A stretch of DNA of 64,000 nt from a bacterium (GCA_020350885.1 CP070727.1:3664017-3728016); one strand, 5' to 3'. Positions 43,537 through 57,401 are shown, numbered from the stretch's first letter. Notes: a model not told the origin generated them from the letters alone. Numbers and translations: made by a program.

Positions 43537-46500
43537 TTATCGCATGATAATGAGCTTCCTCGTCTCACTCACGCCGGTACTTGTTACCAATCTATAGAAA
43601 TAGATGCCACTTGCAACGCTGCGGCCGTAATTGTTCTTCCCCTCCCAGCCGACTTCGTACCTGCCCGGTCTGCGATGACCGCCGAGGAGGGTCCGCACGA
43701 GTGCTCCCCGGCTATCGAAGATCGAAAGCTCCACGGTACACTCATGGGAGATGTCGTACCGTATGATCGTCGCCGGATTGAAGGGGTTCGGGTAGTTCTG
43801 GTGAAGGGCGGTCCGCTGAGGCGGTGTAGGGAACACATCTTCGTTCTCGTCTATGAACTCTGTGCTCCCGACTATCAGGACGAAGCGGGTCTCCCGCTCG
43901 AACGAGACGGGTGTGCGGGAGCCGAGATGGAATCCGTATGTTCCCTCCTCCTTCAGATCGGCCACGGTTCCGAGGTGCCTGTCGATGAGATAGATACGTG
44001 CATGGGAAGGCAGCCGCTCTAACCCGGTGAAGGACAGATCCACGGGGTCGCCGGCGGTCTCTACGGTAAAGTTCTTCGCCACATCGAAGTGCCAGATATG
44101 ACCCCAAAGGTCCTCCTCCCTTCCGATACCCTCCACAAGGGAGCGGGGGAGTACCCCATACCCTCCCCTGATGTCGACCGCATACCGCCCGGGATTCCGG
44201 CGCCAGCCCCCATGGGGAAAGTAGAGCGACACGGAACGTCCCGGGCTCATGGGTGGCTCGGAACGATCGAGCGGATCCTTTGTACTGACGGCTCGGTGGC
44301 GTACTCCCAGGGCATTCTCGATATCGCATGCGCCCTCAGTCCGCGCCTGAATCGTCAGCATCCACTCGTCCTCACCGAGCCCGTCATCCATCTGCGAGAG
44401 ATGGTCCGCCGATGCGATCTCCGGCTGACCCTGCGGTGCCTCATCCGGCGGAATGCTGAGTATGATGATGGTGTCGCGCAGGTTCTTGACCCAGTACCCC
44501 ACGAAGGGCTCCAGCATGTCCGTCCCGAAGAGATACCCGTCCTTCTCCCAGCGCACAGGCGGCTCGAGAACCGTCCCCACAGCCTCCGCCATCGCAAGAA
44601 GCGGTCCGCCGAGCGTATCGACACGTACCGAATCCCACGCGACCGGGAAGGCGAACGGCGTACCGATCATGTTGTATCCGGGAACGAGTGGAAGTGCGAA
44701 GGGGCCGCCGGTCGGTGTCGAAAGCCCCCGGGCCGGACCGGTTCCGATCTGGTGGCGATCCCGTGAGATGAGCCAGTAGGCCCGGCCCTGCTCGAATGAT
44801 TGCACGGTCTCATTCGGCACCTCGACATAGGCCGAATCGAGCGAATCGTATAGAAAGAGGCGCCACAGCGTGATATCGACCGGACCGAGATCGTCGATGA
44901 GAGCTCCCTCGATGGTCCCCTCCATGTCGAGGGGTATCGACATCATCCGGTATGTGCCCCCCGGATGCTCCCGGGCCTCCACGAGATCCTCCACCGTCAC
45001 CTGTAACGTCTTCGGATTGGTGATCATATCCGATGCCGGATCGGAGAGCGTGCTCGTAAGGGTCTGAATCTCCGCCCAGTACTCGATACCTCTGGCCCCC
45101 ACGATCGTATCGGGGATCGTCGCAAACGGAAGCGGGTCACCGTGTCCGAAATCGAACGTTTCGAAACCCACGGTGCCCCCCCGGCGTACATGAAGATCCC
45201 CCGCACTGAAGTGCGCACCGACGGGGAGGCTTACCTGGACGAGCACATCCCTGCCCGTGATGAAGTCCTGGCCCTCGTTCGGAATCGGTGTCGCCGTGAC
45301 GGATATCGGAGGTACGACTGGCCGGTACCACACGGAATCAGGCGCATTGGGCGGATCGGTCGTGAAGACGCCGCTGTTCTCGACACGGATGTAGTATTCG
45401 AGCCCCGCCTCCGTAACGGCCTCGCCCGGTATCACTACCATGAATGCGTCCTGTAATCTGGTGAGCGCTACGCTGTCCGCAAACACTCCGTCGGCGGCCG
45501 GGCGGTGGTACAGGTATCCCCTCTCGACACGGACATCGGGTGCGGGTGTCACGATCACGGTAACCGCCTCCCCGAGCGGCAGCTCATCCGCCTGCGCGAG
45601 AAGCATCGACTCGATCTCGAGGGCACGTATATCGGCCGTCACCGGGATGGCGATCTCCTGGCGGAGGGGATCGTTGCTTGCGATCCGCATCTCTCCCGAG
45701 GCAGAGAGGATCGTGCGCGGCTCGAGAAATACGCTGATCGTATCGGCTTCACCGGGGGCGACCGAGAGCGGGATCGTCTCCCCGATACGCATCTCGGGAG
45801 AAGGCAGCACGACTCCGGTCGCGGTGAGCACCAGGTTGCCACTGTTTTCGATCTCGATTTCGAGCGAGCAGGTATCACCGACATTGACCGTCGGAAAGGC
45901 GAGGGAGTCCGGTGCGGCCTCTATGGCCGGGCGGCTCGGGACGATCCGACCGACCCTCTTGTGATACGATGTGACATGCTGGCCCAGGCTGACCGAGGCG
46001 GGGATCGAGACGACCCTGAGCCGCAGGACGACGTCCCTCGAATCGAACGGCACGAGAGTAACATCACAATCGAGCGAATCCGGAACGCCTACTGGCGAGG
46101 TCCCGACAGGGCCCACGGGTATCGATGAGCCCAGTACCTCGAGGGGATACCACGTGGGCTCGCCCTCGAATTGATAGGCGGGGACGATCCAGGCTCTATC
46201 CGACTCGACATCGAAGCCGGTATACCAGATACGGTACGTGTTCATATCGACCTTCCGGACCTTCACAAAACGCAGGAAGGCGGGATTATCCGGGAGCTGA
46301 TTCGTCGGCGCGAGCAGGTCCCCCCGGTAGGCGGGGGTCCTGAGACCGGGGAACAGCTCGTTGTCGTGCCCGTCGTTTCCGCACACGAGGTCGAGGTCGC
46401 CATCGGCATCGACATCTCCGAGTGCCATCGAGTAGGTGATATACTCCTTGGTGACAGACCAGTATTGATACATCTGGAAGAGACCATCGTCGTTCAGGTA

Positions 46501-48522
46501 TACCCCGTAGAATCTTACATTTCCACACACCATATCGAGATCGCCGTCATTGTCGAGATCACCGAGAGAGATGCTATAGTCTCCCCCATAGGCGGACGTC
46601 CATGCAGGCGAGGATTGAAAGAGACCACCGTCGTTCAGGTACAATCTACTCGGGGCGCGCATGTTTGCACATACGAGGTCGAGTCGGCCGTCGTAGTCGA
46701 TATCCCCCAGCGCGACACACGCCGTTCCCGACGAAGGGGTCGATGACCACTCCGGCACCCCCCCGAAAACCTCCCCCCCGTTGAGATACAGTGTATTCTG
46801 CCCCATGTTGCCGCAAGCCAGATCCAGGTCCCCGTCGCCATCTGTATCCCCCAGAGCTATGGAGAAGGTGTTTAAACTCTCGGACTGCCAATCAGGAGGT
46901 TCACTGAACACACCGTCTTTGTTCAGGTACAGCCTGTTCCCATTCGGGTCGCCGCACAAGATATCGGTATACCCGTCACCATTGATATCATCCAGCACGA
47001 GGCTCTCGCCACCCTCAAAATCGGAAACCCACGAAGGCTCACTGGGGAAGGTTCCGCCGTCGTTCTCGTAGAGCTGCATCGAAACCCCCGGTGAGCCTCC
47101 CCAGAGGAGATCGAGATCCCCGTCATTGTCGACATCACCGAGAGCCGCCCCGGCGCTTACATCTCCTGAGGTCCAGAAGGGGGTATCCTCGAAGGTTGCG
47201 CCGTTGTTACGGTACATCGCGTTGTTGGGCCCACCGCCGGCCACGAGATCGGGGGCATCGTCTCCATTCAGGTCCCCCAGTACGACGACCATGGTCTGGT
47301 TTGACGGCAAGCCCGCCGACCATGTGGGCTCGGCCGGGAAGAGGTACCCGTTGTTCGTGTAGAGGGTGCTGACCTCTTGGTTGCCGAAGACGAGATCGAG
47401 ATCGCCGTCGCCGTCGACATCCGCGAAACCCATCCCCTCCGATTGGAACGACGGGGCCGTAGACCAGGCCGCAGCCGATTGGAGGCTGTCCCCGAGGTTG
47501 AGGTAGAGCCTGTTCGGTCCTTCGTTTGCGACGGCGAGATCGAGATCGCCGTCGCCGTCGGCATCACCCAGTTCGAGGGAATACGTCGTATCCGCCTCCT
47601 GGGATGTCCAGGAGGGGGTTTCCTCGAAGAGACCGCCAATGTTCATGTAGACGGTATTCGGCTCCATGTAGCTACCGCAGACGAGATCGAGGAGTCCGTC
47701 GCCGTTGATGTCGCCGAGGGCGAGGCATGCAGTCATCTCTTCCGGAATCGATTGCCATGAAGGAACGGTCCGCAGCGAATCGCCGTCGTTCAGGTAGAGC
47801 TCGTTCGCCTGGCCTAAGTTGCCGCACACGAGGTCCAGGTCGTTGTCGTTATCGATATCCCCCAGCGCGACGGCTGTTGTCCACATCGTGGCTCCCGCCG
47901 ACCAGGCCGGCTGCTGCGGAAAGGTCCCGTCCCCGTTGTTCAGAAAGAGCTTGTTCTGCTGAAAAAGGTTTCCGCAGACGAGGTCGAGGTGCCCGTCGCC
48001 GTTCACGTCGGCGAATGCGATACCGAATGTGCTGTCGGGGGATTCCGAGATCCATGCCGGCTCCTCCTGAAACACGCCCCCGTCACCGAGATACAACTTG
48101 TTATATCTGATACCCTCGAGGCCCCCGCAGGTGAAGATGTCGAGATCGCCGTCCCTATCCACATCACCGAGTGCGAACCGTAAACAGTCTATCGGACTCG
48201 ACGTCCAGAACGGCATGAGATCAAATACACGACCGTTGTTTCGGTATAGGGTCAGGTCACCGCCGGTAGCGATAATCAGGTCGAGGTCACCGTCACGGTC
48301 CAGGTCACAGAGCGCAGCATATTCCGCTCCCGCGGCTGTACCCGAAGTCCAGACGGGATCGACCGGGAATGGGGGCTCCTGCCCCTGGCATGGAACAGAA
48401 GCGGCAATGACAACAAGAAACGCAAGAACCGTTACGGTAAGACAAAACCGTGAAGCGGACGCCTGTACAACCGCGTACCTGCCCCGTCTGCGGGGATAGA
48501 TATGAGATCTTTCCATTTCCAT
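43537..48522 (-). CDS. Giant secreted FG-GAP/VCBS-repeat protein with T9SS C-terminal sorting domain
   Basis: It has a signal peptide (FCLTVTVLAFLVVIAASVPCQGQ). There are more than 14 repeats of the Ca-binding D-x-D-x-DG-x-x-D-L FG-GAP signature (GDVDRDGDLDIF, GDIDNDNDLDLV...). The C-terminus QNYPNPFNPATIIRYDI...GIYFYRL is a type-A T9SS C-terminal domain. The ATG at 48522 overlaps the kinase gene's TGA stop (TGATG). Confidence 0.85.
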   Translation of the reverse strand: MEMERSHIYPRRRGRYAVVQASASRFCLTVTVLAFLVVIAASVPCQGQEPPFPVDPVWTSGTAAGAEYAALCDLDRDGDLDLIIATGGDLTLYRNNGRVFDLMPFWTSSPIDCLRFALGDVDRDGDLDIFTCGGLEGIRYNKLYLGDGGVFQEEPAWISESPDSTFGIAFADVNGDGHLDLVCGNLFQQNKLFLNNGDGTFPQQPAWSAGATMWTTAVALGDIDNDNDLDLVCGNLGQANELYLNDGDSLRTVPSWQSIPEEMTACLALGDINGDGLLDLVCGSYMEPNTVYMNIGGLFEETPSWTSQEADTTYSLELGDADGDGDLDLAVANEGPNRLYLNLGDSLQSAAAWSTAPSFQSEGMGFADVDGDGDLDLVFGNQEVSTLYTNNGYLFPAEPTWSAGLPSNQTMVVVLGDLNGDDAPDLVAGGGPNNAMYRNNGATFEDTPFWTSGDVSAGAALGDVDNDGDLDLLWGGSPGVSMQLYENDGGTFPSEPSWVSDFEGGESLVLDDINGDGYTDILCGDPNGNRLYLNKDGVFSEPPDWQSESLNTFSIALGDTDGDGDLDLACGNMGQNTLYLNGGEVFGGVPEWSSTPSSGTACVALGDIDYDGRLDLVCANMRAPSRLYLNDGGLFQSSPAWTSAYGGDYSISLGDLDNDGDLDMVCGNVRFYGVYLNDDGLFQMYQYWSVTKEYITYSMALGDVDADGDLDLVCGNDGHDNELFPGLRTPAYRGDLLAPTNQLPDNPAFLRFVKVRKVDMNTYRIWYTGFDVESDRAWIVPAYQFEGEPTWYPLEVLGSSIPVGPVGTSPVGVPDSLDCDVTLVPFDSRDVVLRLRVVSIPASVSLGQHVTSYHKRVGRIVPSRPAIEAAPDSLAFPTVNVGDTCSLEIEIENSGNLVLTATGVVLPSPEMRIGETIPLSVAPGEADTISVFLEPRTILSASGEMRIASNDPLRQEIAIPVTADIRALEIESMLLAQADELPLGEAVTVIVTPAPDVRVERGYLYHRPAADGVFADSVALTRLQDAFMVVIPGEAVTEAGLEYYIRVENSGVFTTDPPNAPDSVWYRPVVPPISVTATPIPNEGQDFITGRDVLVQVSLPVGAHFSAGDLHVRRGGTVGFETFDFGHGDPLPFATIPDTIVGARGIEYWAEIQTLTSTLSDPASDMITNPKTLQVTVEDLVEAREHPGGTYRMMSIPLDMEGTIEGALIDDLGPVDITLWRLFLYDSLDSAYVEVPNETVQSFEQGRAYWLISRDRHQIGTGPARGLSTPTGGPFALPLVPGYNMIGTPFAFPVAWDSVRVDTLGGPLLAMAEAVGTVLEPPVRWEKDGYLFGTDMLEPFVGYWVKNLRDTIIILSIPPDEAPQGQPEIASADHLSQMDDGLGEDEWMLTIQARTEGACDIENALGVRHRAVSTKDPLDRSEPPMSPGRSVSLYFPHGGWRRNPGRYAVDIRGGYGVLPRSLVEGIGREEDLWGHIWHFDVAKNFTVETAGDPVDLSFTGLERLPSHARIYLIDRHLGTVADLKEEGTYGFHLGSRTPVSFERETRFVLIVGSTEFIDENEDVFPTPPQRTALHQNYPNPFNPATIIRYDISHECTVELSIFDSRGALVRTLLGGHRRPGRYEVGWEGKNNYGRSVASGIYFYRLVTSTGVSETRKLIIMR

Positions 48523-50471
48523 CACCTTCGCCGAAACAGTGATGAAAGAAACGATCCTCCCTCTGTGCCCCCGGCCTGCTGTGCCAGGATGAAATCGTTC
48601 AACGTCTTCGAGCAGATCGAGTACTCCCCGTCCGAGGCGAGCAGGTATCCCCTGCGCATGAGATCCTCGTTTACGAACTGATACTTCTTGCTTATCGACT
48701 TGCCCGAGGCGATGCGGCCGAGGTTCTCCCGCTCCTCCTCATTCATGCGCTCCCACAGGAACTGGTAGTGGGGAGAGACCTCGTCTATGTACGAACGAGC
48801 AATCTGCTCCCAATCGGGCTCGGAGTCGGGATTGTCGAGGAGGAATTCGAAGACGTTCGAGCAGGCGATCTGGAGGAAAAGGGGGAAGTAACCCGCCAGC
48901 TCGATGATCCTTCCCGCGTGCGCCCCGAGCGGAATCCCCTCTCGCTCGGAAGGGTCTGTGATGAGCTCTACTGCCTCGTCCCGGCTGAAGGCCCTGAGCG
49001 GCAGGTTCGAGAATATGTTGAAGAACGGCGAATCGGAGATGTCCTTGTTGTGGCACATGAGCTGGAGCTCCTCGCAGGAGGAGGTGACGTAGGCGACATG
49101 GTAGCTGTTCGCCAGCGAGCGCAGGAAGGAGAAAAAGTCCTCCTCGAACTTCTCGTTCTTCGTGATCACCTCGAATTCATCCATGAGAACGATGATTCTG
49201 TTGCCCTGATCGTGGAGCTCCTGTACCACTTCCTTGAGCTGGTCCAGCGTCCTGTCCCGTCCGGAGTACCCCTCGCTGTCCTGCGTCTCGAAGCTGAAGA
49301 CGTTGAAGAGAAAATCGATGAATTTGGGCACGTCGAAGTCGACGTTGCGCTGGAAATCGAGATAGACGAAGATTGCATTCTCGTAGTGCTGCATGTTCTG
49401 CTTACGGTTCCGGCGGTTGTAGATGAAGTTCAGGAGCGACGACTTTCCGATACGCCGTTCGCCGACGACTGAGATCGATTGCGGATGGGGCGCATCGAGG
49501 CGCGAATAGATCTTCCGGACCTCCTTGCTCCTGCCCACTAAATCGACCGGGTTCTTGATCATGACTCTGTTGAGATAGGGATTGCGCTTGCTGCTGCGCT
49601 TGGCGAATGCCTTGACATCCGGAAGAGAAGCGATCACAGCGCTCTCGTCATCGGCATACTTCTTGAGCAGCGTAGCAAGATCGTCTGCGAGTTCGTTGAA
49701 GTCGCTGTACCGCTTGTTCGGGCTCTTCTCGAGGCACCGCCGGATGACGGTCTTGAAATCCGTGGGTACCTCGTCGACGAATTCGAGATTCGATTCATTC
49801 ACGATTGAATACATGAGGGCAGCCGGGTGTTCGGCTTCGAACGGGAAGTAGCCGTTGAGGATGCGGAAGAGACAGACACCGAAGGAGAAGATATCGGTGC
49901 GCTCGTCGACCGGCTCGCCGAGTATCTGCTCGGGTGATATATACGAGGGAGTTCCCATCATCGTATTGCCGGTGGTCTGGATCGACGTGTTTACGAGCTT
50001 GACGAGACCGAAATCGAGGATCTTCACCCGGGCACCCTCGCCGCTCGCCGTATCGAGCATGATATTCTTGAGCGTGAGATCCCGATGTATGACCCCCTGG
50101 CCGTGTGCGCACAACATCGCCTTGCAGACCTGGAGTGCCAGCGAGCATTCCTGTGAGATCGTAAGCGATCCTTTCCCGATAAATTCTTCGAGTGAGGGAC
50201 CGTGTATGTGTTCCATGACGAGGAAGGTCTTTCCCTCGAAGTCCCCGCAGTCGAAGACCGTCACGATGTTCGGATGGTTTATCCTCGCAAGGGTTTCCGC
50301 CTCCCGGATCAACCGCTCACGGGCACTGCTATTGACACCGCCTGCGGTGAGGATCTTCACTGCAACCGGCCGCTTCAGTTTCATATCGACCGCCTGGTAG
50401 ACGGTGCCGAAGCCGCCCTCTCCGATCTTCTTCTCGATCTCGTACTTTTCTAAGAGAACCGTTCCAATCAT
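48522..50471 (-). CDS. Hanks-type Ser/Thr protein kinase fused to a C-terminal P-loop NTPase (AAA_16/STAND-like) domain
   Basis: Kinase motifs are IGEGGFGTVY (GxGxxG), AVKIL (VAIK), HRDLTLKN (catalytic loop), DFG and PSYISPE (APE). The C-terminal half carries LVGRSKEV...SVVGERRIGKSSLLNFI (Walker A) and DEFE (Walker B-like). Confidence 0.85.
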   Translation of the reverse strand: MIGTVLLEKYEIEKKIGEGGFGTVYQAVDMKLKRPVAVKILTAGGVNSSARERLIREAETLARINHPNIVTVFDCGDFEGKTFLVMEHIHGPSLEEFIGKGSLTISQECSLALQVCKAMLCAHGQGVIHRDLTLKNIMLDTASGEGARVKILDFGLVKLVNTSIQTTGNTMMGTPSYISPEQILGEPVDERTDIFSFGVCLFRILNGYFPFEAEHPAALMYSIVNESNLEFVDEVPTDFKTVIRRCLEKSPNKRYSDFNELADDLATLLKKYADDESAVIASLPDVKAFAKRSSKRNPYLNRVMIKNPVDLVGRSKEVRKIYSRLDAPHPQSISVVGERRIGKSSLLNFIYNRRNRKQNMQHYENAIFVYLDFQRNVDFDVPKFIDFLFNVFSFETQDSEGYSGRDRTLDQLKEVVQELHDQGNRIIVLMDEFEVITKNEKFEEDFFSFLRSLANSYHVAYVTSSCEELQLMCHNKDISDSPFFNIFSNLPLRAFSRDEAVELITDPSEREGIPLGAHAGRIIELAGYFPLFLQIACSNVFEFLLDNPDSEPDWEQIARSYIDEVSPHYQFLWERMNEEERENLGRIASGKSISKKYQFVNEDLMRRGYLLASDGEYSICSKTLNDFILAQQAGGTEGGSFLSSLFRRR

Positions 50472-52711
50472 TGCCGCTCACTCTCTTGTGCAAAACTGTA
50501 CTCGAACGGAACTGTCTGGCCCGATTTCACCTCGACGGTACGCTCGACCGTTTCGTAGGATGGATGACGCAGTTCGATCCGGTAGGTCCCCGGGGCGAGC
50601 TCGACAGGCAGATAGACCGCACTCTCCTCGATCAACTCACCATTTATCCATATCTCGGCATAGGGTGTGATCTGGAATACCAGTGTCCCGGGGGGAAGGG
50701 GTCCGAGTGTCACCCGGACACGGTTGTTCGGTGCCGGAATCGAGATCCTGCTCCTCTCCGTACGGAATCCCTCAAGTCTCAGCTCGAGAACATGCTCCCC
50801 CTGGGAAACGGAGGCGAGGCTCGTCGGCGCCGTTGCGATCTTCCGCCCATCGAGATACACAACGGCCCCCGCCGGTTCGGAATCGACAGTAAGCGGGTGG
50901 GTGAGCTTCGAGAATGAGTGATGGAGGGCGACCATCGAGTCGTTGTACACCGACACACCTTGAAAGCTCCGGCTGCTGTACCCCGAAAGACGGAGGTCGA
51001 TGTCGTACCGCTGGTTGACCGAGAGCCCGGTGAGCGTGTCCGGGGTCACCGATCCGGAGTCCTCCCCGTCTACGACGATACGTGCCCCGGGTGGATCGGT
51101 GGTGACGTGGAGGTTCCCCCGAAGCTCCTCGAGAACGATCATGCGTTCGAACGGCTCGTTCTTCACCAGCTCTACCGAATCGATGTACTCCTGGTATCCC
51201 GAAAGCTCGGCCCGTACTGTGGTATGCCTGGCCGCCACCGTTTCTCGTTCTACAGGTGATCTGCCGATCCACTGCTCTCCGATGAAGATGTTGGCCTGGG
51301 CTGGTTGTGTCCTGACCGTTACGACCGTAGAATCGCGAGCGCGACCGCCCCCGATACCACCGGCACCCGGCACACCGGCCCGAAAGAATATCTGGTAGAG
51401 AAACAGAAGGGCAACCACAACGATAACGGCCGAGGAAACAGCAATGATGCGTGTACGGGAGAATCGCTTTCCGACCGGTCTGAGCCCCTCCTCGAGCTCC
51501 TCTTCGCTACCACCGATCTCGTTTATCACCTGCCAGATCGAATGCATGCGGGCCATCCACAGCCGCCACAGGTCCATCTTGAACGTATAGGTATCCCCCC
51601 GTGCGTTCTTCTCCAGCAGGTCATGGTAAAAGAGCCGCTCCACCGTCTCCCGCACCTTGTTCCCGTCGAGCTGGTAGCCGATTTTTTCTTCTGCGGAAAA
51701 CGCAACGATCTCGTCAGGAGCGACCTCACGGATATCCTCCTTGCTCAACTCCGCAATGATCGAGATCGACACCTTTTCGAGGGCCGAGAGCGATGTCCAC
51801 GAAAAGATCATCTGGGGGAGCGGGTTCTCTATGATCTCCCGTGTGACTTCCCGCACGTCTTCCTGTGTCACCCGGTTCTTCTCCTTCTCGTTCAGGTGGT
51901 CCACCAGTGATTGACACAGGACCTGTGTATAGAAGGGCTGTCCGGCCGTGAGCGAATAAATCTCTTCCGGTACATCTTCGTCGTAGGAAACCGAGTCCCG
52001 CACCGGATCGCGTATCAGCCGCATGGTATCGGCCTCACTCAGAAAGCTTATTCTCCGGTGGAGTGCCTTGCCCAGGAAGTGCTCCCAGTACCGGGGATTG
52101 CGTGCTTCGAGCTTGTCGGAGCCGGTGAAGATGATAAAGACCCCTGCCCTGTGTTCCATCCATCCCGCCAGGGCGTTCAGTATGTCCGTGCTGAAACGGT
52201 TCTTGTCGATATGTGTCTCGAAGAGCTCGTATTCATCGAACATCAAAACGAGCTTTCTATCTCCCAGCCTTGCACCAATCCTCTCGGTTAAGATCTGGAA
52301 TGCTGCATATGGATTATCAGTTGCACGGGCTGTGAAATCCCGCTCGAATATGATCTCCGGATCACCGATCGACTCGGTAACCTCCCGGGCGAGTGATTCG
52401 AGGAACTCGTGATCGTTTTCCACCGTCATCGACTGCATATCGATGAGTATCGGAATATAACTCTCGCCGAGTCGCCCCCCCTTGATCTGAAAGAGTATCG
52501 ACGTCTTTCCGCTTCGCCGTGTCCCGCACAGAACGATCAAACCTCCCCGCGTGGCACCCGTGACCTTTTTCCTGATGTACTCGAAGTCATCCTCACGGCC
52601 GAAGAACATCCTGCGGTCCTCGATTGGATTGCCAACGATGTATGGATTGTGGATCATCTGGAATGTGTCATCATCTTCTGGTCGCATCGCGGGGCTCCTT
52701 ACACGTACCAC
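50468..52711 (-). CDS. P-loop NTPase (AAA_16/STAND-like)-TM-4xPEGA domain protein
   Basis: The N-terminus NPYIVGNPI..FFGRED...LCGTRRSGKTSILFQI is Walker A, with MFDEYE downstream. There is a single TM helix (IIAVSSAVIVVVALLFLYQIFF). Four PEGA-like repeats follow (PAQANIFIGEQWIGRSP..., PPGARIVVDGEDSGSVTP..., PAGAVVYLDGRKIATAP..., PYAEIWINGELIEE...). Its stop overlaps the kinase start (ATGA). Confidence 0.8.
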   Translation of the reverse strand: MVRVRSPAMRPEDDDTFQMIHNPYIVGNPIEDRRMFFGREDDFEYIRKKVTGATRGGLIVLCGTRRSGKTSILFQIKGGRLGESYIPILIDMQSMTVENDHEFLESLAREVTESIGDPEIIFERDFTARATDNPYAAFQILTERIGARLGDRKLVLMFDEYELFETHIDKNRFSTDILNALAGWMEHRAGVFIIFTGSDKLEARNPRYWEHFLGKALHRRISFLSEADTMRLIRDPVRDSVSYDEDVPEEIYSLTAGQPFYTQVLCQSLVDHLNEKEKNRVTQEDVREVTREIIENPLPQMIFSWTSLSALEKVSISIIAELSKEDIREVAPDEIVAFSAEEKIGYQLDGNKVRETVERLFYHDLLEKNARGDTYTFKMDLWRLWMARMHSIWQVINEIGGSEEELEEGLRPVGKRFSRTRIIAVSSAVIVVVALLFLYQIFFRAGVPGAGGIGGGRARDSTVVTVRTQPAQANIFIGEQWIGRSPVERETVAARHTTVRAELSGYQEYIDSVELVKNEPFERMIVLEELRGNLHVTTDPPGARIVVDGEDSGSVTPDTLTGLSVNQRYDIDLRLSGYSSRSFQGVSVYNDSMVALHHSFSKLTHPLTVDSEPAGAVVYLDGRKIATAPTSLASVSQGEHVLELRLEGFRTERSRISIPAPNNRVRVTLGPLPPGTLVFQITPYAEIWINGELIEESAVYLPVELAPGTYRIELRHPSYETVERTVEVKSGQTVPFEYSFAQESERQ

Positions 52712-52755: not shown

Positions 52756-53511
52756 TTACTGACCCGGTGGCGCGGGAGGTTCGGGCAGCGGCTCAGGCTG
52801 GGGAGCTCCTTCGCCGCCGGCGCCGCCGAGGGTCACGGCGAGGATGATGCCCGCCGCAACCGCTGGGCCGATACGGTAGAACCACCAGCGCTTGTTGCGC
52901 CGACGGTCCATTGAGACTTCCAGGATATGTTTTCCGCTCGGATCGATCCTGATCGTCTCTTTATAATCGTAATATCCGGACTTCGTAACCATGAGCTCAT
53001 ATGAGCCGATCCTGATGAGATCGAGCTTGAGCGGCGTTTCCCCCTTGAATTCTTCACCGAGAAAAACTCTACAGTCCCCTGGCTTAGTGATCTCCAAGGT
53101 GCCGAACATCTCGCTCCGGAGCTGGTTGTATATTTCATTTACCCGCGGGGGGAACTCGACCGGATCGGCTACCAGGTCGGCAAACTGCTCCAATCCTTCG
53201 CGGGCCTGTGCAATGGCGCTTGCATCCTCTTTCATCAAAAGGAACGTAAACACTATGTGGTTATACGCACGCTTCAGGATATCATCCGATTCGGAATACT
53301 GATTGATGATGTTGTTGAGCAGCTGTATCGCCTCGTTGAACTCACCCCGTGCCCTGAGAGAGCTTACCAGCTCCCACTTCTGATATATCTGCTCCTGAGC
53401 GGCACCACGGGCAACCGAGGCGTAAGACGAGATCAAAAACAGTACGCACAGTAGTATGGTAAACGAACAGAAACGCCGCGAGAACGAGAAACGGATCTCT
53501 GAAAGGCACAT
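52756..53511 (-). CDS. TPR-like + PEGA domain membrane protein with Pro-rich tail
   Basis: It has a signal/TM segment (FCSFTILLCVLFLISSYASVA) and a helical TPR-like region. The PEGA domain is GDCRVFLGEEFKGETPLKLDLIRIGSYELMVTKSGYYDY. A TM helix and a PQPEPLPEPPAPP tail follow. The start was chosen at the ATG at 53511. Confidence 0.65.
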   Translation of the reverse strand: MCLSEIRFSFSRRFCSFTILLCVLFLISSYASVARGAAQEQIYQKWELVSSLRARGEFNEAIQLLNNIINQYSESDDILKRAYNHIVFTFLLMKEDASAIAQAREGLEQFADLVADPVEFPPRVNEIYNQLRSEMFGTLEITKPGDCRVFLGEEFKGETPLKLDLIRIGSYELMVTKSGYYDYKETIRIDPSGKHILEVSMDRRRNKRWWFYRIGPAVAAGIILAVTLGGAGGEGAPQPEPLPEPPAPPGQ

Positions 53512-53637
53512 GGCCCGACCTCCATCCAAGGGCTTCGACGATATCTTTTCGTAAATATTCCCTGTATAACTTATCATATATGAAGAGGATAGATTATAGC
53601 AAGACAAATCTGCGCAGCGTGTGGGAAACCCCGTTCA

Positions 53638-55635
53638 CTATGGCATGACCTTCGTCACACCTCCATATTGCGTTCCGATCCACAGCGAGCCGGAATGATC
53701 CTCACAGAGCGTGCGGATGTGTCCATCGGTCAATCCCTGTGAGATCTGCACATGAATCCACTCTCCCCGGCGTCTGACATAGACCCCGTCACTCTCCGTC
53801 CCGACCCAGATCTCGCCCCTGCTCGTACCGATGATCGCCGTCGGCACGAAACCGGAGACACGCTGTGGCGGATCGATTATCTGCCACCCCGTACCCGTCA
53901 GCCGGAAGATGCCGTCTTGCCGAGCCAGCAGACAATTACCGGCCATATCGAGCCCGAGTATGTTGCCCCGTGACCGGGTACCCTCCGGTTCGCTCCCCTC
54001 GAGCCTGCCGAGGAATCGGATCCCGGGATCGAGTCGCAGAAGCGTATCCTGCTGGGCACCGGACGTATCGGCTCCCGCTCCGTAGGGAACCGGTAAGACC
54101 GCCTCCTCCCAGCGTCCCTCCGAATACCTCGCCAATGTACCGTCCGCGGTGAGAATCCATGGATACCCCGCTCCATCGACGACGAGGGAGCCGATACGGT
54201 TCTGCGGAAGTCCGTTCCTCTCGGTATAGTGAATCCACTCCCGCCCGGTGAACTCGAGTACGCCGCGATCGAACGAAGCGAACCATAAACTACCTGAAGG
54301 ATCGAAGGAGAGCGCCACGAAATGCTCCGTCGGCAATCCCTGACGCCTGTCGAACAGATTCCATGATCGGCCGTCGAAGTGAAGTATCCCGAAACGTGTG
54401 GCGACCCACATCTCCTCATCGTCTGTGACGAAGAGATCAGTCATCGTCCCGGAGCACCATTCCAGCGGCGGGGTGACTTCGGTTAGATCCTCCCCGAGTC
54501 GGTAGATGCTCCGCTCGGCAAGAAACCAGAGCGCCGGGCCGAACCGTTGCACGGATATGACATGCTTGCTCGGAAATCCTTGGGGCATAGCAACTTCCCG
54601 CACTGCGTCCCTCGAGAGGACGAAGACGGTGCCCTCGTCGGTGCCGAGGTAACAGATCCCCTCGAGGTCATGATGAATCGACAGGAACCGGTACTGTGTA
54701 AGATTCACGCCCGGTAGCCGATAGGGTGTCCACGCCGAGCCATCGAAGCTACTCACGCCCGCCCCGCCCGCAGCCCACAGGCGGCCCGTAGGATCGAGGC
54801 TGAAGCCATGGATCTCATCGCTGGGAAGACCATCCCTTACCCCAAACAGCCGAACACGCCCGAGATTGTACAGAACAACCCCCTTGCGTGCGATCGCCAG
54901 AAAAAGATTTCCTTCCTCATCCAGCGCAAGTTCCTCCACTGCACCGATGGGAATACGGCTCCCGTACCGCATCGATTCCCAACTCAGTGTATCCGACCTG
55001 CACAGTCCGCTCGCAGTTCCGAACCATACCGTGTGTGGGTCCTGCTCGAGGATCGTCAGCACACGGTCGTCGAGCAGGGAATCCTGCCGGGTATAGACGG
55101 TGAGTGAATCGTCTCGTATATAGGCGCATCCATCGCCGTATGTCGCGATCCACACCACGGCATCGCCGCGAACGATGTCCGTGACCCTCCTGAAAAAACC
55201 GCGGTGCCCGGAGGGTAGATGAATCCACCTGCCGTCCCGTCTCACACTTACGCCCCCGTCGCCCCCCACCCAGAGCGAACCGGTATCATCGGCCATGATT
55301 GTCCGTATCGAGACAAATGCCGGTCCCCTGACCGATGAAACGGAGTCCTCCACCGTGTTGTAGGCGAAGAGCCCGCCCTCCGTCCCGACCCATAATGTAT
55401 CATCCTGGCTGAGAAGCGCTCTGATCTCCCTGGCGGGAACATGCCGAACGATGGTTCCTGAAAGGCCAAAAGGACCGAGCCGGTCAACCCAGTACAGGGG
55501 CTTCCGGTCACCTGAAACGATCCACCCACCGGGTTCTCTCGGTTCCTCCTCGGGGATTTCTTCGCCGGCAAGAGGGGTGGCACCGATCACGAGTGCGAGA
55601 ATTCCAAGCAATGAGACGACTGTCCGAATGTTCAT
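53638..55635 (-). CDS. Secreted double beta-propeller protein built from ~14 two-component-regulator propeller (Reg_prop) repeats. There are no kinase or HTH domains
   Basis: It has a signal peptide. It contains about 14 recurring ~45-aa units with the [LF]W[VIF][GA]T..G[LV] signature (DDTLWVGTEGGLFAYN, GSLWVGGDGGVSV, HTVWFGTASGLCR, EEMWVATRFGILHF, GEIWVGTESDGVYV, GSLWIGTQYGGVTKV...). Confidence 0.75.
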   Translation of the reverse strand: MNIRTVVSLLGILALVIGATPLAGEEIPEEEPREPGGWIVSGDRKPLYWVDRLGPFGLSGTIVRHVPAREIRALLSQDDTLWVGTEGGLFAYNTVEDSVSSVRGPAFVSIRTIMADDTGSLWVGGDGGVSVRRDGRWIHLPSGHRGFFRRVTDIVRGDAVVWIATYGDGCAYIRDDSLTVYTRQDSLLDDRVLTILEQDPHTVWFGTASGLCRSDTLSWESMRYGSRIPIGAVEELALDEEGNLFLAIARKGVVLYNLGRVRLFGVRDGLPSDEIHGFSLDPTGRLWAAGGAGVSSFDGSAWTPYRLPGVNLTQYRFLSIHHDLEGICYLGTDEGTVFVLSRDAVREVAMPQGFPSKHVISVQRFGPALWFLAERSIYRLGEDLTEVTPPLEWCSGTMTDLFVTDDEEMWVATRFGILHFDGRSWNLFDRRQGLPTEHFVALSFDPSGSLWFASFDRGVLEFTGREWIHYTERNGLPQNRIGSLVVDGAGYPWILTADGTLARYSEGRWEEAVLPVPYGAGADTSGAQQDTLLRLDPGIRFLGRLEGSEPEGTRSRGNILGLDMAGNCLLARQDGIFRLTGTGWQIIDPPQRVSGFVPTAIIGTSRGEIWVGTESDGVYVRRRGEWIHVQISQGLTDGHIRTLCEDHSGSLWIGTQYGGVTKVMP

Positions 55636-55706: not shown

Positions 55707-57116
55707 TCAAGAGGATTGCTGTGTTCCGGTAAGGGCCGAGGGTGCCGGCCGGTGTATGATCTCATGAAGAAATCCGGAAATATCATGTCCGCTCAGCCTC
55801 CGCACCGCTGCCGTCAAAGCTTCCTCATCGATGTATGTGGTCCCTCCCGCCTCCTCGTACATCATCCGGAGAATGTCGATTAATCCGATACGGTTCCGGG
55901 TGATCTCAGTGATATGGGCGTCGAGGGCCTCAGCGGCGAGAAAGCCGCCGTCGTAGAGAAGATTCACAAGGTCCTTGTCTCCCAGGTCACTGTTGACCGC
56001 TTCACCGATGGGGACGGCCTCGAGATAGCTGTTCTCCATGTAACGTTTGGCGATGAGATCGCGATTGCGCCGGTGCTGCTCCGGGGTGATGATATTCGCA
56101 TCGAGGAGGGTTTTATAGGAATAGTAGACGGTGACACCTTCCGTGAACCAGAGAAATTCATCCGTGCGGGGCCGCAGGGTTTCTCCGTTCCAGTTGTGAA
56201 AGAACTCGTGCGCAACGATCGCCATCGGCGTATCGAAGAGTTGGCTGCGATCGAGCTTCGTATCCAGCAGCAACACGATGCTTCCGGTGAAGTGAACTCC
56301 GTAGAGGTTGAATCCCCTGTAGCCCTTAATCGGATTCCGGTCGCACACGAAGAGGTACCGCTCGTGAGGGGAGGAGCCGAAGAGAGCCGTTTCGCTCGTT
56401 ACGATCCTCTCGATCACCTCGAGCAGCTCCTCGTCGTGAAACGTCCACGAACTCGCTATCGCCATGACGAGTTCCGTCTGTCCCGCCCATCTCCGGAACA
56501 ACCGGTAGTTACCTGATACAACAACAGTCGATGGGAGATCACCGATCGACGGGACCGTGATCCTCGTACCCGTACCGGCCCAGGCGGAGCAAACCGGCAT
56601 GCCCGGAAAGATCGCGGTATCGACCACCACGCCCTCCGAGACAGCCTCCGCAGGCATGATGAATAGATCACCACCCAGGAGTCGGCAGCGGTCGTGATCG
56701 ATGAAGCTCAGCATCGTTTTAATGTCGGGGGAATACCGGTTCTCGACTGTCAGAACGACATCGTAGTACACAGAGAAATCTTTGCCCCCATGCTCGACGA
56801 TCCAATCCCCCTCCCCTTCCGTTACGGAAAGTGCCCTCCCCTCACGGTCAAGGGCCGTAATACCGATCGGCACGGGTGAACGATCCCAGGTCCCGTGTGG
56901 TGAAACGAACCGCATTGTTTTCCCGATGGAACCGAATAGATCGATCCGTACGCGTACGATGTTCAAATCGTGATCCTTCAGCGTCACCCGATACTGGACG
57001 AACGGATGCGATCGGTTAACCGGTCCTACCGGAAACGAGCACCCGCTCACGAGAAGAAGCGCGAGTAGGGCCGTAACGGAAAACGATATAACTGCTTTAT
57101 TTACAGGTCGTTTCAT
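55707..57116 (-). CDS. Gluzincin metallopeptidase lipoprotein (M1/M61-like, HEFFH...E)
   Basis: It has a lipoprotein signal (VTALLALLLVSGCSF). IVAHEFFHNWNGETL is the HExxH motif, and WFTEGVTVYYSY carries the third ligand Glu. The start was chosen at the ATG at 57116. Confidence 0.7.
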   Translation of the reverse strand: MKRPVNKAVISFSVTALLALLLVSGCSFPVGPVNRSHPFVQYRVTLKDHDLNIVRVRIDLFGSIGKTMRFVSPHGTWDRSPVPIGITALDREGRALSVTEGEGDWIVEHGGKDFSVYYDVVLTVENRYSPDIKTMLSFIDHDRCRLLGGDLFIMPAEAVSEGVVVDTAIFPGMPVCSAWAGTGTRITVPSIGDLPSTVVVSGNYRLFRRWAGQTELVMAIASSWTFHDEELLEVIERIVTSETALFGSSPHERYLFVCDRNPIKGYRGFNLYGVHFTGSIVLLLDTKLDRSQLFDTPMAIVAHEFFHNWNGETLRPRTDEFLWFTEGVTVYYSYKTLLDANIITPEQHRRNRDLIAKRYMENSYLEAVPIGEAVNSDLGDKDLVNLLYDGGFLAAEALDAHITEITRNRIGLIDILRMMYEEAGGTTYIDEEALTAAVRRLSGHDISGFLHEIIHRPAPSALTGTQQSS

Positions 57117-57401
57117 TATAGCGTCTCGCTGCGGGGTGGCGGTGCCCTTGCGTGCTCTTACTACCTTCTTCGAACCGTTCATGCAAACCGCATTCCAAAC
57201 TCCGCGCAAGGCAATCACCGGTCGTTCAAAAACCGATTCACCCTACCGGCGGCTTCTCGAACGTGTCATCCTTTGGCCTCCCACATTCCAACGGTCGTCT
57301 CCATTGCCCGGCCGGATTGACTGATGCAGACCGATCGACTACAATGAATAGCGTACGGATTTCCGCTGTAGAGAACATTTCCTGTTGCCGGGCATCGTGT
57401 C

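Follow-up and report, generated by a model that had tools for sequence, protein, structure and literature searches.

Two overlapping genes on the minus strand of a 64,000-nucleotide stretch of bacterial DNA (GCA_020350885.1, CP070727.1:3664017-3728016; hereafter the window) encode a membrane protein with PEGA domains (gene A) and a soluble protein with a Ser/Thr kinase domain (gene B), and each appears to carry a P-loop NTPase. This raises the question of whether the two NTPases are related, and if so whether they might link a membrane sensor to a kinase. A sequence-only reading had proposed that the two NTPase domains are paralogous and that hetro-oligomerization through them joins extracytoplasmic PEGA repeats (the input) to a cytoplasmic Hanks kinase (the output), i.e. 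a candidate split sensor kinase. Both open reading frames are where that reading placed them. The open reading frame of A spans 50468..52711, but its GTG at 52711 is probably not the start. The likely start is the ATG at 52687, which is preceded by AAGGAG at 52700..52695, and a database protein (P0001) has the matching length of 739 aa. The stop codon of A (TGA, 50470..50468) overlaps the start codon of B (ATG, 50471..50469), implying translational coupling. The features of the locus are collected in the table.

Features of the locus. Positions are counted from the first nucleotide of the window, and residue numbers refer to the protein of the feature.
Feature	Position	Strand	Residues	Description
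Gene A	50468..52687	-	739 aa	Sensor protein: A-type STAND-like NTPase, one TM helix, four PEGA domains
A-type NTPase module of A	51503..52660	-	10-395	Nucleotide-binding domain, helical domain and winged helix
N-terminal motif of A	52580..52648	-		NPYIVGNPI…MFFGREDDFE, including an hhGRExE-type motif
Walker A of A	52499..52525	-		GTRRSGKTS
Walker B of A	52226..52249	-		VLMFDEYE
TM helix of A	51392..51448	-	414-432	IIAVSSAVIVVVALLFLYQ
PEGA-repeat region of A	50471..51322	-	456-739	Presumed input domain; outside location inferred from the topology
Overlap of A and B	50468..50471	-		ATGA
Gene B	48522..50471	-	649 aa	Effector protein: Hanks-type kinase, disordered linker, nSTAND2 NTPase; no TM segment
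Kinase domain of B	49677..50444	-	10-265	GEGGFG from aa 17, VAVK from 36, HRD from 129, DFG from 153, SPE from 179
Catalytic loop of B	50064..50087	-		HRDLTLKN
nSTAND2 module of B	48567..49571	-	301-635	Nucleotide-binding domain, helical domain and winged helix
Walker A of B	49437..49466	-		VGERRIGKSS
Walker B of B	49170..49190	-		VLMDEFE
Upstream accessory gene	52756..53607	-	283 aa (ORF)	Signal peptide or anchor, helical TPR-like region, one PEGA domain, C-terminal TM; hydrophobic segments at 41-59 and 246-264
Downstream gene	43537..48525	-	1662 aa	Secreted protein with about 13 FG-GAP repeats and a T9SS C-terminal sorting domain
Reg_prop gene	53638..55635	-	665 aa	Secreted beta-propeller protein with signal peptide, 30 nt upstream of the accessory gene

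Pfam assigns four PEGA domains to A (E = 5.5e-39), while no family reaches its threshold on the N-terminal half. Only sub-threshold hits to AAA_22 (25.2 bits against a cutoff of 27), ATPase_2 and nSTAND1 are found there, with no hit to nSTAND2 (PF20702) at E <= 0.01. A hydropathy scan finds a single TM segment in A and none in B. For B, Pfam gives Pkinase (E = 7e-53; 180.1 bits against 31.7) and nSTAND2 (E = 2.6e-45; 155.3 bits against a cutoff of 24, profile positions 3-268 of 279). The catalytic loop of the kinase departs from HRDLKPxN, the basic residue lying at the +4 rather than the +2 position. HRDL(T/S)L(R/K)N is the most common form among the partners in the FCB clade, whereas Blastocatellia partners have HRDIKSSN.

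The two NTPase modules are homologous. They align over 314 residues at 23% identity (BLASTP E = 8e-6), and comparison of family profiles built from 22 sequences each gave an hhalign probability of 99.66% and E = 3.5e-25 over 281 columns, which is well beyond chance. A is a sister family to nSTAND2 that is detectable by profile-profile comparison. The motifs IVGNPI, FFGRED, CGTRRSGKTSILFQI and FDEYE are present in A, and LVGRSKEV (family consensus FFGRxxEV), VGERRIGKSSLLNFI and DEFE in B. Both modules share the NPY…FFGR motif, Walker A, Walker B and a GxP motif. Across 22 diverse homologues of A the residues N14, P15, V18, G19, N20, P21, F28, G30 and R31 are invariant, as are G55, R57, R58, G60, K61 and S63 of Walker A and D151, E152, Y153 and E154 of Walker B. 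In the alignment of the B module, G47, G52, K53 and S55 of Walker A and D141 and F143 of Walker B are invariant. The G and R of the hhGRExE-type motif are invariant or nearly so in both alignments. These motifs, and a helical domain with GxP followed by a winged helix, correspond to features of the STAND class of NTPases (Leipe et al. 2004), although neither protein has the C-terminal TPR, WD40 or LRR sensor that probably typifies that class; in A the NTPase is followed by the TM helix and PEGA domains, while B ends after the winged helix.

The AF2 model of the A module has a pLDDT of 88.4, and B (pLDDT 86.9) is modelled as a kinase, a linker of low confidence at residues 280-294, and an NTPase with a winged helix. 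The B module matches PDB 2fna (E = 3e-8), while a PDB sequence search with the A profile gave nothing useful. A fold search was used instead, in which A and B appeared closer in structure to ATPase_2 and Orc/Cdc6 than to the NACHT and NB-ARC clades. Foldseek with full-length B was dominated by kinase structures, the best matches being PknB, PknA and Stk1, and so was uninformative on the NTPase. The NTPase modules are the most conserved parts of both proteins, with mean pairwise identities of 60% against 37% for the PEGA region in A, and 53% against 45% in B.

Is the pairing peculiar to this locus? In 67 of 71 A-type loci an nSTAND2 gene lies on the same strand within 3.5 kb downstream; the exceptions are four loci, L034, L058, L069 and L072 in our numbering. 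The records are labelled Latescibacterota, Krumholzibacteriota, Eisenbacteria, Calditrichia, Spirochaetota, Blastocatellia and Desulfobacterales. The same 4-nt overlap occurs in 11 related loci and in locus L091, and the gap is 22 nt or less in most other intact pairs of the FCB clade. Four apparent exceptions (L005, L014, L019 and L026) have a split or truncated A or B open reading frame.

While the two modules are constant, what is attached to them is not. PEGA, SP–Reg_prop–Y_Y_Y–TM, Peripla_BP_6, TPR, FGE-sulfatase, Laminin_G, RHS and HAMP all occur on the A-type module, and in 116 of 135 multidomain A-type representatives a TM segment directly flanks the NTPase, in either topology. Kinase in either order, adenylate/guanylate cyclase, and kinase plus cyclase are found on nSTAND2 proteins next to A-type genes. 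One cyclase version is followed by a gene for a cNMP-binding PP2C, which looks like a signalling cascade. PP2C and OmpR-type winged-helix DNA-binding forms of nSTAND2 also exist, but the two loci examined (L081 and L089, respectively) had no A-type neighbour, so the pairing is not universal for every nSTAND2 protein. A protein with FG-GAP repeats and an NTPase near the nSTAND2-wHTH gene of L089, from Anaerolineae, has no similarity to the A-type NTPase of the window detectable by tblastn (>45 bits). Some loci have three NTPases, with an extra nSTAND2-only protein, so the stoichiometry may vary. We also note that single-chain fusions of the two modules occur naturally in both orders. In the proteins P0263, P0384 and P0385 nSTAND2 is followed by the A-type module (P0263 is on record from one contig, and four contigs were read for P0384), while P0370 has the A-type module, TPR and then nSTAND2.

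Other genes may take part. The accessory gene upstream of A (Pfam PEGA, E = 4.3e-8) is a frequent partner in the FCB clade, with a homologue immediately upstream of A in 14 of 24 loci. The start of the downstream gene (FG-GAP_3, E = 7.9e-103; NCBIfam Por_Secre_tail) overlaps the stop of B in a GTGA/TGATG junction, so it is probably in the same operon, and a homologue is present in 13 of 23 FCB-clade loci. The Reg_prop gene (E = 3e-27) is possibly co-transcribed, but its link to the system is uncertain. No homologue was found next to the pair in the FCB loci L001-L029 and it was rejected as a conserved part of the system in that clade, although Reg_prop is the sensor fused to the A-type NTPase in other phyla. 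A scan for promoters and terminators between 43 and 58 kb gave counts no higher than in shuffled sequence, and was uninformative.

Taken together, we think it likely that A and B form a two-protein transmembrane signalling device built on a pair of paralogous STAND-like NTPases. In the mechanism we propose, a signal at the PEGA domains, possibly involving the TPR-PEGA protein and the secreted FG-GAP protein, shifts the NTPase of A into an assembly-competent nucleotide state, whereupon it co-oligomerizes with the nSTAND2 module of B. This would concentrate and activate the kinase at the membrane, and NTP hydrolysis would reset the complex. The topology, the direct contact between A and B and the direction of signalling are inferred; operon linkage and fusions show a functional link and not a particular geometry. 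Every part of the sequence-only reading that could be tested by computation held, but the word 'split' is misleading. We found no single-chain PEGA-kinase ancestor, and the two-protein layout looks like the conserved ground state of a large modular family rather than a product of fission.

The conserved operon would be equally expected if A and B each formed homo-oligomers, as STAND and AAA+ proteins commonly do, and were co-transcribed only because they act in one pathway; A or its partners could for example be substrates or regulators of the kinase, or B could phosphorylate the juxtamembrane linker of A. The nSTAND2 effectors without an A-type neighbour fit such a reading. We consider it unlikely, however, since the two paralogous modules are the constant and most conserved elements whatever the sensor or output, and they have been fused into one chain at least twice with no sensor or output domain attached. 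A role in secretion seems more doubtful still. A has the topology expected of ExeA/GspA (i.e. a cytoplasmic AAA_22-like ATPase, TM helix and periplasmic binding domain) and a weak hit to the PEP-CTERM-associated ATPase TIGR03015; its PEGA domains might bind an envelope polymer and help to export or anchor the giant FG-GAP cargo, with B as a regulator. Yet no FG-GAP homologue of the window protein was detected (tblastn, E 1e-5) in any of the Blastocatellia loci or in nearly all other non-FCB loci, where the NTPase pair persists, and the invariant partner is an nSTAND2 protein with signalling outputs. ExeA probably binds peptidoglycan and assists secretin assembly, without a paralogous effector NTPase partner.

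A system of defence, sensing attack by phage or competitors at the envelope and shutting down the cell through the kinase, also seems improbable. It is suggested by the nSTAND2 two-gene conflict operons, by TIR-fused relatives (P0189 and P0373) that hint at conflict roles in parts of the family, and by matches of B to the PADLOC models PD-T4-6, mad6 and MkoA. While the PADLOC matches are strong (E to 1.9e-75), every one covers only the generic kinase domain (aa 1-300), and A has a single weak hit (PDC-S27, E = 1.6e-5). The neighbours are housekeeping genes (EF-G, TyrRS, glycosyltransferases and Wzz), the modules are strongly conserved rather than diversifying, and the gene order is conserved across phyla, although mobility itself was not tested phylogenetically. 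The cyclase followed by cNMP-PP2C and the OmpR-type DNA-binding outputs are typical of regulation.

The closest precedent is the nSTAND2 two-gene operon (Kaur, Iyer, Burroughs & Aravind, eLife 2021, PMC8195603), in which two adjacent co-directional genes each encode a STAND-type NTPase of the nSTAND2/MNS-like group, and for which a hetero-multimer was predicted. One Calditrichaeota row of their supplement (beta-barrel, STAND+wHTH, Pkinase+cyclase) corresponds to one type of locus found here (L055). In the described system, which is called mobile and counter-invader, both proteins are cytoplasmic and one NTPase is catalytically eroded and carries HEPN or GT4 effectors. Here both NTPases look active, one is tethered to the membrane with extracytoplasmic sensor domains, and the other carries kinase or cyclase outputs (PP2C or DNA-binding outputs elsewhere in the family) in a conserved chromosomal context. 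Our literature searches combining PEGA, Reg_prop/Y_Y_Y, STAND and kinase terms found no description of this system.

Other comparisons are more distant. The nearest mechanistic analogies are Orc1/Cdc6 heterodimers and the sensor–helper NLR pairs (NAIP–NLRC4, paired plant NLRs and the NRC network), where one STAND protein probably senses and a paralogous one carries the output; those pairs are cytosolic immune receptors with LRR sensors, while A would sense through a membrane with phosphorylation as the output. M. tuberculosis PknK, cyclase–ATPase–HTH proteins such as Rv0386, MalT and AfsR are likely to follow the same logic as B, with a STAND NTPase controlling a fused output, but they carry their own C-terminal TPR-type sensor. 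The cassette of signal peptide, Reg_prop propellers, Y_Y_Y and TM found on A-type proteins in Blastocatellia and others is that of Bacteroides hybrid two-component systems, in which the transmitter is a histidine kinase with receiver and AraC domains. In receptor Hanks kinases with extracellular repeats (PknB-PASTA and kinase–TM–PEGA proteins) the sensor and kinase are one polypeptide joined by a TM helix.

There are about 1000 A-type clusters at 50% identity, and most of the multidomain representatives examined are membrane-tethered. It is about as likely as not that the pair defines a large, unrecognized class of prokaryotic transmembrane receptors, in which an extracytoplasmic ligand-binding domain controls ATP-dependent co-assembly of a tethered and a soluble STAND NTPase to drive kinase, cyclase, phosphatase or transcription-factor outputs. 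This would be a membrane-spanning, non-immune counterpart of the sensor/helper NLR pairs, and a signalling principle distinct from two-component and one-component systems, ECF sigma factors, chemoreceptors and single-chain receptor kinases.

Bacterial transmembrane signalling is usually explained by histidine kinases, chemoreceptors, anti-sigma factors and single-chain Hanks kinases. If our model holds, it adds a modular receptor type that uses a pair of nucleotide switches to carry information across the membrane. The system is widespread in poorly studied phyla (Latescibacterota, Krumholzibacteriota, Eisenbacteria, Blastocatellia, Calditrichota, Spirochaetota and Poribacteria), where the genes are currently annotated only as 'PEGA domain-containing protein', 'protein kinase' or 'AAA ATPase'. 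The model gives the A-type NTPase, which no Pfam model reaches, a testable role, and suggests that the co-encoded TPR-PEGA and FG-GAP/T9SS surface proteins may be part of the input. It would also show that the sensor/helper logic known from NLR immunity is used for ordinary environmental sensing.

On the minus strand there is a tight run of genes, whose positions are collected in the table. Gene A and gene B overlap as ATGA, so that the stop of the first lies over the start of the second, and the stop of B in turn overlaps the start region of the 1662-aa ORF (GTGA/TGATG). The position of the AAGGAG box and the following ATG makes a 739-aa product more likely for A than the longer ORF as listed, and this length matches that of the identical database protein (P0001). 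The relation of the M61/M1-type metallopeptidase gene, 71 nt upstream of the Reg_prop gene, to the cluster is unclear.

Coordinates of the genes and elements discussed in the text
Sequence	Position	Strand	Feature
window	43537..48525	-	ORF of 1662 aa; secreted protein with about 13 FG-GAP repeats, a choice-of-anchor-D-like region and a T9SS C-terminal sorting domain
window	48522..50471	-	Gene B, 649 aa
window	50064..50087	-	Kinase catalytic loop of B, HRDLTLKN
window	50468..52711	-	Gene A, ORF as listed
window	52687	-	ATG, more likely start of A (739 aa)
window	52700..52695	-	AAGGAG box of A
window	52756..53607	-	ORF of 283 aa; signal peptide or anchor, helical TPR-like region, one PEGA domain and C-terminal TM segment
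window	53638..55635	-	Secreted Reg_prop beta-propeller protein, 665 aa; 30 nt upstream of the TPR-PEGA gene
window	55707..57218	-	M61/M1-type metallopeptidase with N-terminal hydrophobic segment
L055	13656..14726		Third protein, nSTAND2 module only
L066	13028..14038		Third protein, nSTAND2 module only
L077	3145..4233		Third protein, nSTAND2 module only
L083	1138..2208		Third protein, nSTAND2 module only
L089	7001..8344		nSTAND2 with OmpR-type Trans_reg_C DNA-binding domain

Comparison with Pfam assigns Pkinase (180 bits) and nSTAND2 PF20702 (155 bits) to B. Four PEGA domains are found in A, with only sub-threshold P-loop hits on the N-terminal half (AAA_22 25.2 against 27; ATPase_2 23.3 against 33.2; nSTAND1 19.2 against 27.1). 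The FG-GAP repeats of the 1662-aa protein were also identified in this way, and its T9SS sorting domain was found with NCBIfam. A hydropathy scan finds one TM helix in A (aa 414-432) and none in B. An ATPase must be cytoplasmic, so the PEGA repeats should face outward, although this topology is an inference.

The two NTPase regions are the same module. They align by BLASTP over 314 residues at 23% identity with an E value of 8e-6. Family alignments of 22 diverse sequences were built for each, and profile-profile comparison of these gives a probability of 99.66% and an E value of 3.5e-25 over 281 columns. Both families share the motif order noted in the sequence-only reading, i.e. NPY(I/L)…FFGR (an hhGRExE-type motif), Walker A G-x-RR-x-GK-(T/S)-S and Walker B DE(Y/F)E, together with a GxP motif in the helical domain and a winged helix. 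The catalytic residues are invariant in both families, so neither partner looks like a degenerate NTPase. There is, however, one asymmetry. A has an invariant arginine (R196) between the fourth and fifth strands of the P-loop core. B has no invariant basic residue at that position, but has an invariant arginine (R451, in FLRSLAN) in the preceding helix.

B is modelled as a PknB-like kinase, a disordered linker (280-294), and the NTPase with helical and winged-helix parts. The kinase keeps its Gly-rich loop and the VAVK, HRD, DFG and SPE motifs. We note that in the catalytic loop the basic residue is at +4, as in tyrosine kinases (HRDLAARN), rather than at +2 (HRDLKPxN). HRDL(T/S)L(R/K)N is the most common form in this clade, while the Blastocatellia partners have HRDIKSSN. 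Substrate specificity could be unusual.

A scan of one genome per species with the gene-A alignment returned 80 loci (loci have the prefix L in this text; proteins retrieved from the databases have the prefix P). Of 71 loci with at least 1.5 kb of DNA downstream of the A-type gene, 67 have an nSTAND2 gene on the same strand within 3.5 kb. In the clade that includes the window (records labelled Latescibacterota, Krumholzibacteriota, Eisenbacteria and similar) the order is always A followed by kinase-nSTAND2. Eleven of these loci have the same 4-nt overlap, and most of the other intact pairs have gaps of 22 nt or less; four loci (L005, L014, L019 and L026) show larger apparent gaps because the A or B ORF is split or truncated there. 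A homologue of the 283-aa TPR-PEGA protein lies immediately upstream of gene A in 14 of 24 loci of this clade; this protein is a candidate extracytoplasmic partner of the PEGA repeats of A. A homologue of the FG-GAP giant is present in 13 of 23 loci, on either side or strand of the NTPase pair, and this protein may be a co-receptor, ligand or regulated target. By contrast, the Reg_prop protein is not conserved beside the pair in related FCB loci.

Outside that clade the two NTPase modules stay constant while everything else changes. In Blastocatellia and other loci the A-type module is the C-terminal cytoplasmic end of proteins of 1000-1450 aa, with the layout signal peptide, CarboxypepD_reg, Reg_prop propellers, TM helix and NTPase; the propellers are here the sensor fused directly to the A-type NTPase. 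A Y_Y_Y domain is also carried in L083 (an unassigned metagenome contig) and in some database relatives (P0309 and P0361). The next gene is nSTAND2-kinase, i.e. with the domain order reversed. In L083 the partner is nSTAND2-cyclase, followed by a cNMP-binding PP2C gene. In another locus, L091, a periplasmic-binding-protein sensor (ANF_receptor/Peripla_BP_6) is fused to the A-type module and its gene overlaps by 4 nt that of an nSTAND2-kinase. In Spirochaetota, Calditrichia and Desulfobacterales the partners are cyclase-nSTAND2, kinase-cyclase-nSTAND2 or nSTAND2-cyclase. In loci from Calditrichia, Spirochaetales and Desulfobacterales, and in L083, a third protein made only of an nSTAND2 module sits between the sensor and effector genes; in the three genome loci aligned its Walker B is DDF rather than DEF. 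This suggests that there are three-component versions of the system. Other sensors on the A-type module are TPR, FGE-sulfatase, Laminin_G_3, RHS and HAMP, while other outputs on nSTAND2 are PP2C, TIR and an OmpR-type DNA-binding domain. Proteins of about 445 aa with the last of these arrangements (P0458-P0490) are numerous, and those that carry a source label are from Anaerolineae. The example examined, in L089, sits next to a classical two-component pair, and no A-type sensor was detected within 7 kb.

A full HMMER search of 1.84 billion cluster representatives with the module of A found 981 at E <= 1e-30. Among the best 150, 116 of 135 multidomain proteins have a hydrophobic segment directly flanking the NTPase, which is C-terminal of an N-terminal NTPase in 85 cases and N-terminal of a C-terminal NTPase in 31. 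The A-type module therefore behaves as the juxtamembrane cytoplasmic part of single-pass receptors in both topologies. It is not restricted to membrane sensors, however, since a cytoplasmic protein of 1214 aa (P0373) combines Pkinase, FHA, TIR and an A-type NTPase, and part of the family may act in conflict systems. Two A–B systems occur in one MAG (L025 and L028, both contigs of isolate binchicken_co165_179), and two sensor-effector sets lie in tandem on L083. Paralogous systems must therefore keep partner specificity.

Local HMM scans of all the proteins retrieved found two kinds of single-chain fusion, both soluble and lacking any sensor or output domain. In P0263 nSTAND2 (5-357) is followed by A-type (369-751), whereas P0370 (locus L086) comprises A-type (4-376), TPR and then nSTAND2 (520-856). 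The first kind is confirmed by two further 90%-identity clusters, P0384 (for which four contigs were read, the longest 23 kb) and P0385, at 83% identity with full or near-full coverage, and it is therefore not an assembly artefact. P0263, P0384 and P0385 correspond to loci L085, L087 and L088; L087 has a CopG-antitoxin-like gene and an ORF of 1897+ aa nearby. By the Rosetta-stone argument these fusions support a direct functional link, and probably a physical one, between the two modules.

Within the clade of the window the NTPase modules are the most conserved parts of both proteins. In A the mean pairwise identity is 60% for the NTPase against 37% for the PEGA region, and in B it is 53% for nSTAND2 against 45% for the kinase. 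The surrounding genes are housekeeping, encoding EF-G, TyrRS, glycosyltransferases and a Wzz-like protein. This pattern fits a constrained signalling core with a faster-evolving input, and does not fit a rapidly diversifying immune receptor.

The best-supported model is a sensor/effector pair of STAND-like NTPases. In this model the outside domains of A sense a signal, possibly together with the TPR-PEGA protein and the FG-GAP surface protein, and the NTPase of A changes nucleotide state or conformation. It would then co-assemble with the nSTAND2 module of B, so that the kinase is activated by proximity at the membrane, and hydrolysis would reset the system. The contact between the two proteins, the direction of signalling, the stoichiometry and the ligand are only inferred. 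The proposal made in the sequence-only reading, that hetero-oligomerization through paralogous NTPase domains links extracytoplasmic PEGA repeats to a cytoplasmic Hanks kinase, is supported as far as computation allows, and the observation on which it was based is confirmed.

It is not excluded that A and B act in the same pathway but as separate homo-oligomers, although this explains the fusions and the constancy of the two modules less well. A role in defence is favoured by the TIR-fused relatives and by the origin of the nSTAND2 name, but the intact NTPases, the conservation, the genomic context and the regulatory outputs count against it. The topology of A would also fit an ExeA-like assembly factor for the FG-GAP cargo. 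However, no homologue of the FG-GAP protein of the window was detected in any Blastocatellia locus or in nearly all other non-FCB loci, while the NTPase pair persists there.

The nearest described system is the nSTAND2 two-gene operon (Kaur et al. 2021), in which two adjacent STAND genes are predicted to form a hetero-multimer. That system is cytoplasmic, one partner has an eroded NTPase and carries HEPN or GT4, and it is interpreted as a mobile counter-invader system. The supplementary table of that study contains one Calditrichaeota row (beta-barrel, STAND+wHTH, Pkinase+cyclase) that corresponds to the L055-type locus found here, but the membrane sensor partner and the signalling interpretation are not discussed. 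We found no paper describing PEGA or Reg_prop sensors coupled to STAND pairs. Mechanistically the nearest analogues are probably sensor/helper NLR pairs and Orc1/Cdc6 heterodimers, while architecturally they are PknK- and MalT-type STAND-output fusions, Bacteroides hybrid two-component sensors, receptor Hanks kinases and ExeA/GspA. Paired STAND NTPases are already known, but the system analysed here has a membrane-spanning, signalling character that appears to be undescribed.
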